Origin: Eledone cirrhosa
Lineage: Eukaryota
Assembly (NCBI GenBank): GCA_964016885.1
Contig: OZ024743.1
Location: 274,722,001 to 274,786,000 of the forward strand
Reading direction: 5' to 3'
DNA: 64,000 nt
Part shown: piece after piece, positions 57,138 through 59,151 of the stretch
How the letters are laid out: each line of letters opens with the position of its first letter
How positions within the stretch are numbered: position 1 is the first letter of the stretch
The notes under the pieces: generated by a model
The model's database searches: none
What the model was told of the DNA's origin: nothing
What the model saw: the letters and a program-made list of their open reading frames with translations, nothing else
Translations under genes and position numbers: made by a program

Positions 57138-57195
57138 ATACTATGATCATTTCAATGACCGGCTTCCGTATGAATCCGGTGATATCATCAGGTAT
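57138..57195 (-). ncRNA. Type I hammerhead ribozyme motif
   Basis: ATAC-CTGATGA-TATCACCGG..CCGGTCATT-GAAA-TGATCA-TA/GTAT; palindromic stem III ATGATCAT. Confidence 0.78.
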
Positions 57196-57553
57196 TCGAA
57201 ATATAATAAATGCATGTAACAGATAAAATCCATGCGGCTGAAAATCATAGACCCGAGGACGACCGACCATCTAGCATCTTCCACTTTAGTCGGTCGCAGT
57301 GGTGAACCTTCAAACCTAAATATATATATATACACACGCACATACACACGCATACACTCTCGTATATACATATATATATATATAGAGAGAGAGAGAGTCA
57401 GAGAGAGAGAAAGAGAGAGAGAGAGGGAGAAAGAGAGTGAGAGAGAGTAAGATATGAATGCCGGGTTCAATCGGGGGTAACCACAGTAAGCAACAACTCA
57501 ATACATTAGTAGAGTGTAAACATCATATATATTAAACATGATATATATTTATA

Positions 57554-57691
57554 CAGGTAAAATTCCGTTATGACGAATACCATTATAATGAATTTTTCAG
57601 TATAACGAATTTTTTTCGTTATACTGAAACGCTCGATTTGTTTCGGTCGATCTCGTTATATAGAATTTTTCGTTATAACCGAATTTCACTG
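57554..57691. mobile_element. Tigger/pogo-like MITE
   Basis: TA-CAGGTAAAATTCCGTTATGACGAA ... TTCGTTATAACCGAATTTCACTG-TA. Confidence 0.72.
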
Positions 57692-57998
57692 TATATATAT
57701 ATATATATATATATATACAGATGGCGTAGGTATACAATGCAACGGGAGGAAACATAATAGCACCACTGACGATGTTGCAGATGTGCAACGAAAGAACTTT
57801 GTTAGACTATATATATGTGTTTGTGTCTATATTGTATCTGTATTTTTGACCGTTGGTCAGTCAATGGCAACATTGAGGACTGAATAAATTAAATTAACCG
57901 ATATAAAAGACACAGAAGCGAAAACCAACCAAACAGTGAGTGTGTTCTGTTATTAATTCTGGCAATATTATTACACAAATATGACCCTCCCCAAGTAT

Positions 57999-58052
<54 letters not shown>

Positions 58053-58088
58053 AATATTAATAAATATAGACATTCATGTGATCAAATA

Positions 58089-58154
58089 TATTTTATTATA
58101 CATATTTCAGAGGTACTGAGCTATTTCAACAGTACGTCCTCATCAGATAAAATA
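58089..58154 (-). ncRNA. Type I hammerhead ribozyme motif
   Basis: TATTTTAT-CTGATGA-GGACGTACTG..CAGTACCTCT-GAAA-TATGTA-TA/ATAAAATA: 8-bp stem I, paired stem II, AUA site. Confidence 0.85.
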
Positions 58155-58219
58155 AGTTGATGCCTGACATACCTTGACTATGTTGATGGTTATAATTTAG
58201 TCATGGCAGTCATATATAT

Positions 58220-58303
<84 letters not shown>

Positions 58304-58326
58304 GTATATATATGCATGTGTGTGTG

Positions 58327-58406
<80 letters not shown>

Positions 58407-58621
58407 CAGTATATCCACAACATATAATGTATCAGTGTGCATGTATGCGTGTGTATGTGTTATAAGACTTTGTTCATAAAGTAGACAAAATTCAGGTGTC
58501 ACTTGAAACCTACTCGTGTCTTTCACATACATCTGCTGTAATGAATCAATATAGAAAAAGACTACAAATTCTGTAAACATTGTCACGTTTTTCATATACA
58601 GGATATTCTTCAATGTATACA

Positions 58622-58700
<79 letters not shown>

Positions 58701-58830
58701 GTGTGTAGGAGGTGAGTTTTATTGTAGTACAATAAAGCAATGCAGATATCGGATAAGAAGCACTCTACAGTTTGTAGGACTGGAGTATACATAATATATA
58801 AGATCAAAAGATGGTTAAAAGAGTTCCATG

Positions 58831-58901
58831 TATTTTATTATGCGCATTTCAAAAACAAATATCATCATGCAATAATATTTGTGTTTTCATCAGATAAAAT
58901 A
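58831..58901 (-). ncRNA. Type I hammerhead ribozyme motif
   Basis: TATTTTAT-CTGATGA-AAACACAAATATT..ATATTTGTTTTT-GAAA-TGCGCA-TA/ATAAAATA; palindromic stem III ATGCGCAT. Confidence 0.85.
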
Positions 58902-59085
58902 GGAAGACATGATATGAAGGTTAAAAAACACTTGTGAATAGTGCAGTTTTAAATCAACATATATATATATATATGTAGAGGTTATATTTAATTTGTTGGG
59001 ATACAACAAGCAAAATATTTTTATAACTGAAGGTTGCATTTTTTCAGGGTATGTCAATATTTATTTATAAAACTAATCTATATTA

Positions 59086-59151
59086 TATTTTATCTGATGA
59101 AAGCGCACCATAATCTGCCTTGGTGGCCCTTGAAATACGTATAATGAAATA
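59086..59151 (+). ncRNA. Type I hammerhead ribozyme motif
   Basis: TATTTTAT-CTGATGA-AAGCGCACCA..TGGTGGCCCTT-GAAA-TACGTA-TA/ATGAAATA; palindromic stem III ATACGTAT. Confidence 0.85.

Follow-up and report, generated by a model that had tools for sequence, protein, structure and literature searches.

Hammerhead motifs with palindromic stem III in a TA-rich patch: probable ends of Penelope-like elements

What kind of mobile element leaves four hammerhead motifs, each with a self-complementary stem III, within about 2 kb of a TA-rich patch, and in which form would such motifs cleave? The window, meaning here the whole 64-kb stretch of DNA that was analysed, is microsatellite-rich and of animal type. 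An earlier, sequence-only reading had placed four full-core hammerheads in this patch, and all four are present at those coordinates and on those strands. Published work is drawn on below through the parts of each source that were available.

Four hammerhead motifs

Positions within the motifs follow the established hammerhead numbering convention.

57138..57195, minus strand: H1, type I hammerhead; C3 at 57191; stem III AUGAUCAU; predicted cut after A57142
58089..58154, minus strand: H2, hammerhead; C3 at 58146; stem III AUAUGUAU; predicted cut after A58097
58831..58901, minus strand: H3, hammerhead; C3 at 58893; stem III AUGCGCAU; predicted cut after A58839
59086..59151, plus strand: H4, hammerhead; C3 at 59094; stem III AUACGUAU; predicted cut after A59143

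In each motif CUGAUGA is followed by helix II, GAA, 8 nt running from A15.1 to U16.1, A17 and helix I; CUGAUGA, GAAA and an AUA triplet are present in all four. Helices I, II and III surround the core and helix I is open, as in type I. A strict descriptor (helix I of at least 4 bp, self-complementary stem III, helix II region of up to about 60 nt) returned four loci in the 64-kb window, every one within 57.0-59.3 kb, against about 0.01 per shuffled window (none in 198 and one in 2 of 200 block-wise dinucleotide shuffles). The type I core (CUGANGA, GAAA, UH, A15.1-U16.1) is complete at six of the window's 28 CUGANGA sites, all six inside 51-59.2 kb.

When H1-H4 are aligned, 54 of 60 cells are paired and both sides change in 9 of 15 pairs, with 25-56% pairing in a slid-partner control; since the structure was set from the same four sequences (n=4), the pairing count is consistency support and less than an independent test. 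A stem I common to three motifs had been proposed and is borne out: H2-H4 share an 8-bp helix I that resumes past a bulge or internal loop, and H1 has only 4 bp adjoining the core. With H6 (below) included, H2-H4 form a set with an AU-rich helix I of 8-10 bp. The active fold sits 3-11 kcal/mol above the minimum-energy fold, tertiary contacts lying outside the model.

Searching with motif or covariance models, as the earlier reading had advised, gave a divided answer, with the strict descriptor recovering its four loci and Rfam models matching none. At the gathering score there were 0 Rfam matches, and hence no hammerhead model; at E up to 10, the searches of 55-61 kb, of H3/H4 and of H1 gave 120, 12 and 2 weak matches, none to a hammerhead and mostly of microsatellite against microRNA models. 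Hammerhead pattern scans of viral contigs and of prokaryote genomes each gave 0 matches. All three metagenome pattern matches (L001-L003) lie in AT-rich coding frames without a hammerhead fold and were rejected. Within the window, two relaxed-search matches near 4.5-4.9 kb and one at 19.0 kb were dropped, being at simple repeats. At 32538 (minus strand) there is a weak remnant like a minimal PLE (Penelope-like element) hammerhead, in which the core halves are followed by CGUU and helix II is poor.

At the level of sequence, H1-H4 are thus confirmed as real type I hammerhead motifs; the description of the ribozymes as intact stands at that level, and their status is limited to it.

Further motifs and the design of helix II

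Relaxed searches added two more complete motifs and a decayed one:

52798..52945, plus strand: H5, hammerhead; C3 at 52805; helix II of 115 nt; stem III ACGAUCGU; U17; stem I of 7 bp
52644..52797, minus strand: H6, hammerhead; C3 at 52787; core as in H5; helix II region of 115 nt; stem I of 10 bp
52583..53010, no strand assigned: head-to-head inverted repeat carrying H5 and H6; (TA)n on its left side only
51144..51231, minus strand: H7, decayed hammerhead; C3 at 51226; GGA in place of GAA; one stem III change

The arms of the inverted repeat are identical across 213 columns apart from one T, its turn falls in helix I, and (TA)n meets the left arm only. The centre of this near-perfect 214-bp repeat is a 7-bp hairpin with a GAA loop, an arrangement that fits cDNA snap-back. 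The tail of H7 runs for 42 nt and then enters (TA)n.

All six complete motifs (five distinct sequences) build helix II in the same way: a C-pyrimidine mismatch at the fourth position separates the first three from a long stem. The mismatch sets C opposite C (as in H1) or U (as in H3, whose helix II has 16 positions), and the neighbouring pairs vary between motifs. Stem II had been described as wholly different between H1-H4 yet pairing: it does pair, and the difference is not complete, as the fourth-position mismatch recurs in all four and the length is 31 nt in three of them. A sister family, represented by a loose end in 13,714 reads (agreement 0.92), looks by eye to fold alike: its fourth position is also C-C and its length 31 nt. 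The sole exception is the decayed H7, with G-U. G10.1-C11.1, which is usual and not obligatory for type I, occurs in none of the six, which have U-U, G-U, A-U, A-U, C-A and C-A instead. The first helix II pair of H1 is U10.1-U11.1, and natural U-U variants at 10.1-11.1 are reported in the available part of PMC3088659.

The design is kept among families with no common stem sequence, so that a new tertiary contact may exist. Structural selection would maintain the fixed mismatch, which may serve as a docking site for helix I. Lunse et al. 2017 may, reportedly, already include long-helix variants. Neither this form of helix II nor these cephalopod motifs were found in the literature searched, which was thin on subscription papers. 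Because standard searches miss the form, hammerheads may be undercounted in such genomes.

One further structure lies upstream of H1:

57259..57302, minus strand: 11-bp GC-rich stem with a possible 5-bp H-type pseudoknot; none of 200 shuffles scored as high

It has no Rfam match. A pseudoknot common to all motifs was rejected, as only one of six upstream flanks passed and it is absent in the five others.

Units, tails and copy number

H1-H4 each lie within a unit of 160-235 nt that ends 48-56 nt past the predicted cleavage site, at or near (TA)n. Across all motifs, 42-69 nt of downstream sequence lead to (TA)n or to the point where other copies enter (TA)n, the exception being the arm with H5.

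57086..57319, minus strand: H1 unit, between (TA)n arrays; tail of 56 nt past the cleavage site
58049..58212, minus strand: H2 unit, between TA/CA arrays; tail of 48 nt
58786..58958, minus strand: H3 unit; tail of 53 nt; other copies stop in (TA)n at 58786
58704..58785, minus strand: high-copy 82-nt far-3' extension, or separately inserted piece, beyond the H3 tail; from read depth and loose ends
58977..59030, minus strand: inverted piece, similar to the H4 group's far-3' extension and fused to the H4 unit at its 5' end; breaks at 59030/59032
59032..59195, plus strand: H4 unit, 5'-truncated; tail of 52 nt to (TA)n

Read mapping covered the H3/H4 region (58700-59196), where the counts are of records and not of copy numbers: 9,683 of 17,142,217 contigs in X1, 102 of 8,254,286 in X5, 41 of 6,943,267 in X6, and 32,984 of 12,467,656 reads in the RAD-seq run X21. 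These records represent many distinct copies, under three organism labels, and show that H3 and H4 are separate high-copy families. Reads share ends into (TA)n at 58704, 58786 and 59184-59194, and other copies of the 58704..58785 segment also end in (TA)n. The H4 family runs 5' of 59032 into other sequence in reads, so the local H4 copy is truncated. The piece at 58977-59030 is joined elsewhere to an H4-like tail end on the opposite strand (joints from 59030 to 59169-59194), which identifies the local piece as far-3' sequence in inverted orientation. The two families also meet elsewhere, as joints from 59184 to 58704 and 58786 place TA and then an H3-type end after an H4-like tail at one or a few other loci. 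The segments past the H3 and H4 tails (58704-58785, 58977-59030) both start with TACTCC, have GAGTG soon after and ACCTC before TA; at 51278 (minus strand), 52 nt upstream of H7, there is a similar start.

Among 40 of 101 variant rows (core variants may sit among the rest), 22 fall inside H3/H4 and none at an invariant core base. Eight are in loops, the bulge or N7, eleven keep a pair, and three break one when taken singly; two of these three have a compensating change in the same table, and the third appears in one X21 read direction only. Covariation, which the earlier reading had named as a check, is seen in the 9 of 15 pairs that change on both sides; of the listed read variants, 11 of 22 keep their pair.

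The suggestion that several distinct ribozyme-bearing families share one TA hotspot also holds, as H3 and H4 are separate high-copy families and other copies end in (TA)n. When six insertion events were placed at random among the 88 merged (TA)n arrays (200,000 trials), all six fell within 8.2 kb in 0.07% and four fell within 2.1 kb in 1.7%, figures that overstate the clustering since the window was picked for its hammerhead cluster. Clustering is above a random choice among the window's TA arrays, and PLEs are described as inserting into or beside earlier copies (PMC6765202, available text). The patch also holds an inverted-repeat element at 57550-57690 with cgttataac-like ends and TA flanks, which is MITE-like.

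Which element carried the motifs

We consider it probable, at roughly three chances in four, that the motifs are type I hammerheads in the 3' pLTRs of several TA-targeting PLE families, or in short derivatives moved by the same enzymes. H3 and H4 offer multi-copy 5'-truncated ends with a hammerhead near the 3' end, and 52583-53010 and 58977-59030 offer an inverted 5'-adjacent copy with a one-sided tail; all of these features (inverted 5'-adjacent copies, a tail at one end, 5' truncation, (TA)n targeting) are described for PLEs in the available text of PMC8557442. The leftover units would then be 5'-truncated element ends. A GIY-YIG endonuclease would nick (TA)n and reverse transcription would start at the RNA 3' end, stopping early and sometimes inverting, which would give short ends and inverted pairs. 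As insertions would keep flanking TA, later ones could accumulate in the same patch.

A Pfam scan covered 127 of 190 non-repetitive frames, the other 63 being mostly alternative frames over two LINE regions. It returned RVT_1 at 28078-28959 and 45505-47313 and some C2H2 fingers, with no GIY-YIG or PLE reverse transcriptase (RT) domain in the 127 frames. The two RTs are, judging by their motifs, presumably of L1/Tx1 type. For the 45505-47313 protein, the closest named animal relative is in Argonauta hians (62%, full length), with cuttlefish at 36%; one relative labelled as a bacterial MAG, also at 62%, is taken as contamination. These relatives make a cephalopod host, probably an octopod, likely. 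One LINE family, bearing RVT_1 and zf-RVT, is present as several copies or pieces at 26587-29620 and 41600-47316 (minus strand), with a 603-aa open stretch at 45505-47313. C2H2 zinc finger frames lie at 38496-39023, 5355-5525 and 39353-39523 (minus strand), and we take the 38496-39023 frame to be like the C-terminal part of a LINE protein.

The motifs had earlier been read as markers of PLEs or retrozymes. Their anatomy fits PLEs, and the linked RT/GIY-YIG frame that this reading advised seeking is absent among the 127 of 190 frames scanned, an absence to be expected of truncated copies. With no PLE protein gene found in the window, we infer PLE membership from anatomy. By design, the motifs would behave as dimer-type PLE hammerheads, and membership of a PLE family is likely. 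No direct tandem pLTR pair occurs within the window. The marks of min-HHR (no helix III, an extra base after A9, G10.1-C11.1) are not found in the motifs, which are accordingly not filed as min-HHR.

The units could instead be dispersed monomers of non-LTR retrozymes, non-coding elements of about 200-350 nt that form small circular RNAs and are inserted by PLE enzymes. Unit sizes are comparable (H3 with its extension measures 255 nt), an axolotl retrozyme has a 2-bp stem III capped by a tetraloop and a helix II that begins with U-U (PMC7229834), and solo monomers are common among retrozymes, which derive from pLTRs (Li et al. 2026, 10.64898/2026.07.22.740005; both in available part). This origin is nonetheless unlikely, as no unit forms a head-to-tail tandem array in the window, none of the 15 joints listed of 32 links a unit head to tail with itself, the motifs lack the canonical geometry of a 6-bp helix I and a 4-bp helix II in loop-loop contact, and the H4 family extends upstream of 59032 in other copies.

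A non-PLE LINE or SINE that targets TA and acquired its hammerheads independently would account for a helix II design that, together with the lack of G10.1-C11.1, distinguishes these motifs from PLE hammerheads in the published text available, and for the lack of a linked PLE gene among the 127 of 190 frames. Dong-R4 and unclassified SINEs are also numerous among recent insertions in O. vulgaris (PMC13282606, in part). We regard such a source as highly unlikely, since the PLE pattern is the combination of 5' inversions, tails on one side and, at the 3' end, a type I hammerhead whose stem III is palindromic, and the LINE ribozymes reviewed in the available text of PMC6765202 and PMC7761336 are HDV-like or twister and sit at the 5' end. 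That the motifs merely resemble hammerheads by chance in AT-rich DNA, or result from misassembly, is extremely improbable. Rfam gave no hammerhead match, microsatellite-rich regions are hard to assemble, and no listed contig covers the whole 58700-59196 stretch, so that its exact arrangement stands without independent confirmation; against this, 0.01 loci are expected per shuffled window, H1-H4 covary, and the H3 and H4 motifs occur in thousands of independent records. For the motifs themselves, chance is largely refuted.

Stem III palindromes and dimers

Stem III is self-complementary in all six complete motifs, as an 8-nt palindrome in H1-H4. The claim that self-complementarity is kept while the sequence varies holds for all four, with the qualification that in H2 AUAUGUAU self-pairs in a dimer solely via two G-U pairs. 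Helix III would have 2 bp in a monomer and 8 bp in a dimer; the calculated stem III energy is unfavourable for the monomer hairpin (+2.4 to +4.7 kcal/mol) and favourable for the homodimer duplex (-2.2 to -10.5 kcal/mol). AUAUGUAU was also considered as CpG decay of a single copy and this was rejected, as T stands at the matching H4 position in 97-99% of records; there, a partner change to A is also seen in about 30% of records. In reads, the H4 site is mostly AUAUGUAU or AUAUAUAU, with AUACGUAU the minority form.

Between local copies, stem III cross-pairs at 5 of 8 positions for H1 with H2, 6 of 8 for H1 with H3, and 7 of 8, two of them wobbles, for H2 with H3. H2 and H4 match in full, yet lie on opposite strands. 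Dimers in cis among local copies are therefore unlikely, there being no matching partner on the same strand. The helix I common to H2-H4 and the match of stem III between H2 and H4 make mixed dimers of sister families possible in trans.

On a tandem transcript of the parent element, a pair of copies would anneal via the 8-nt palindrome, cleave, and set the 5' end of the element RNA. The energies and published work suggest that the dimer would be the more efficient form in parent transcripts. Invertebrate retrozyme hammerheads with a 2-bp stem III are described as cleaving well as monomers (PMC7229834 and PMC7761336, available passages), so a dimer step is not forced. The solitary copies in the window probably cleave weakly or not at all.

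A tail copy that begins at a predicted cleavage site

59939..59991, minus strand: T3, 53-nt copy of the H3 tail (51/53 identical); begins at the predicted H3 cleavage site; in a TA run of a minisatellite

Since the minisatellite whose TA run T3 interrupts goes on to either side of it, T3 is a separate insertion. For the same reason, T3 and H3 as the bounds of one 1.15-kb element are ruled out. The minisatellite itself (59847-60527) is degenerate, with units of about 60 nt, and is broken by T3.

Judged by its sequence, T3 may be a reverse-transcribed 3' cleavage product. Its start at the cleavage site is only a hint of self-cleavage after H17, drawn from one case, and because the H3 tail opens with ATA, which the target could supply, microhomology favours the junction and leaves its position uncertain by up to 3 nt. 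The role of PLE hammerheads is still termed a mystery in a review passage (PMC7761336, in the part available). Insertions piled up exactly at the cleavage site could be counted in a good assembly and would directly test PLE hammerhead cutting in vivo.

A bolder proposal, which we put forward tentatively and with the odds against it, would make the motifs a distinct hammerhead subclass, high-copy in octopod-like genomes and missed by Rfam and short-stem descriptors. In such a subclass, helix I would dock on the fixed mismatch of a freely extendable helix II instead of on loop 2, the palindromes would determine which families cleave together, and T3 would be a retrotransposed cleavage product recording PLE hammerhead cutting in vivo.

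Comparison with known systems

The kind of element proposed is already known, as dimer-type hammerhead PLE ends number thousands in animal genomes. In the available text of Cervera and De la Pena 2014 (PMC4209133), PLE hammerheads are dispersed and highly variable, with palindromic helix III, opposite-strand pairs and low activity. Those of D. willistoni, Aedes, shrimp and rotifer are likewise type I, dimer-type and dispersed as solo copies with palindromic helix III, and are variable within one genome, with opposite-strand neighbours 100-700 bp apart. As palindromic stem III, variability within a genome and opposite-strand neighbours are thus already published there, the present cluster is ordinary in kind. 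The D. willistoni hammerhead, with an 8-nt palindrome, A17 and U10.1-U11.1, matches the stem III layout seen here. In contrast, helix II is here 31-115 nt with a mismatch at position 4, where the helices shown in that source are short and mostly uninterrupted; the present motifs also have no G10.1-C11.1 and, in H2-H4 and H6, an AU-rich helix I of 8-10 bp.

Metazoan non-LTR retrozymes, as far as the available parts of PMC7229834 and 10.64898/2026.07.22.740005 describe them, are likewise PLE-derived, non-coding units of a few hundred bases with a type I hammerhead of 2-bp helix III and tetraloop. Unlike them, the units here are non-tandem and have no canonical loop 1/loop 2 geometry. Li et al. 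2026 (10.64898/2026.07.22.740005, in part) tie retrozymes to pLTRs and report cleavage in one of nine dimers tested.

Cephalopod Naiad PLEs share (TA)n targeting, 5' truncation, inverted copies and tails (PMC8557442, available text). Naiads are described there as being without canonical hammerheads, and the 3' ends of Naiad_Obim and Naiad_Ovul carry no motif like these. Comparison by eye with the available octopus Naiad 3' ends led us to reject the motifs as the missing hammerheads of Naiads ('half-core' cases). The motifs are, also by eye, unlike the available hammerhead of Hydra-1_oBim, a Hydra-clade family from octopus (PMC8557442).

Hydra-clade PLEs (Craig et al. 2021, PMC8557442, in the part available) likewise have (TA)n targets and a hammerhead near the 3' end, with frequent U17 or A17 and a frequent non-G-C first helix II pair, as here; they differ in having a short helix II and a stem III of 9-10 nt. 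Set beside these systems, an interrupted, conserved helix II and an insertion at the cleavage site are the parts that could add to what is known of PLE hammerheads.
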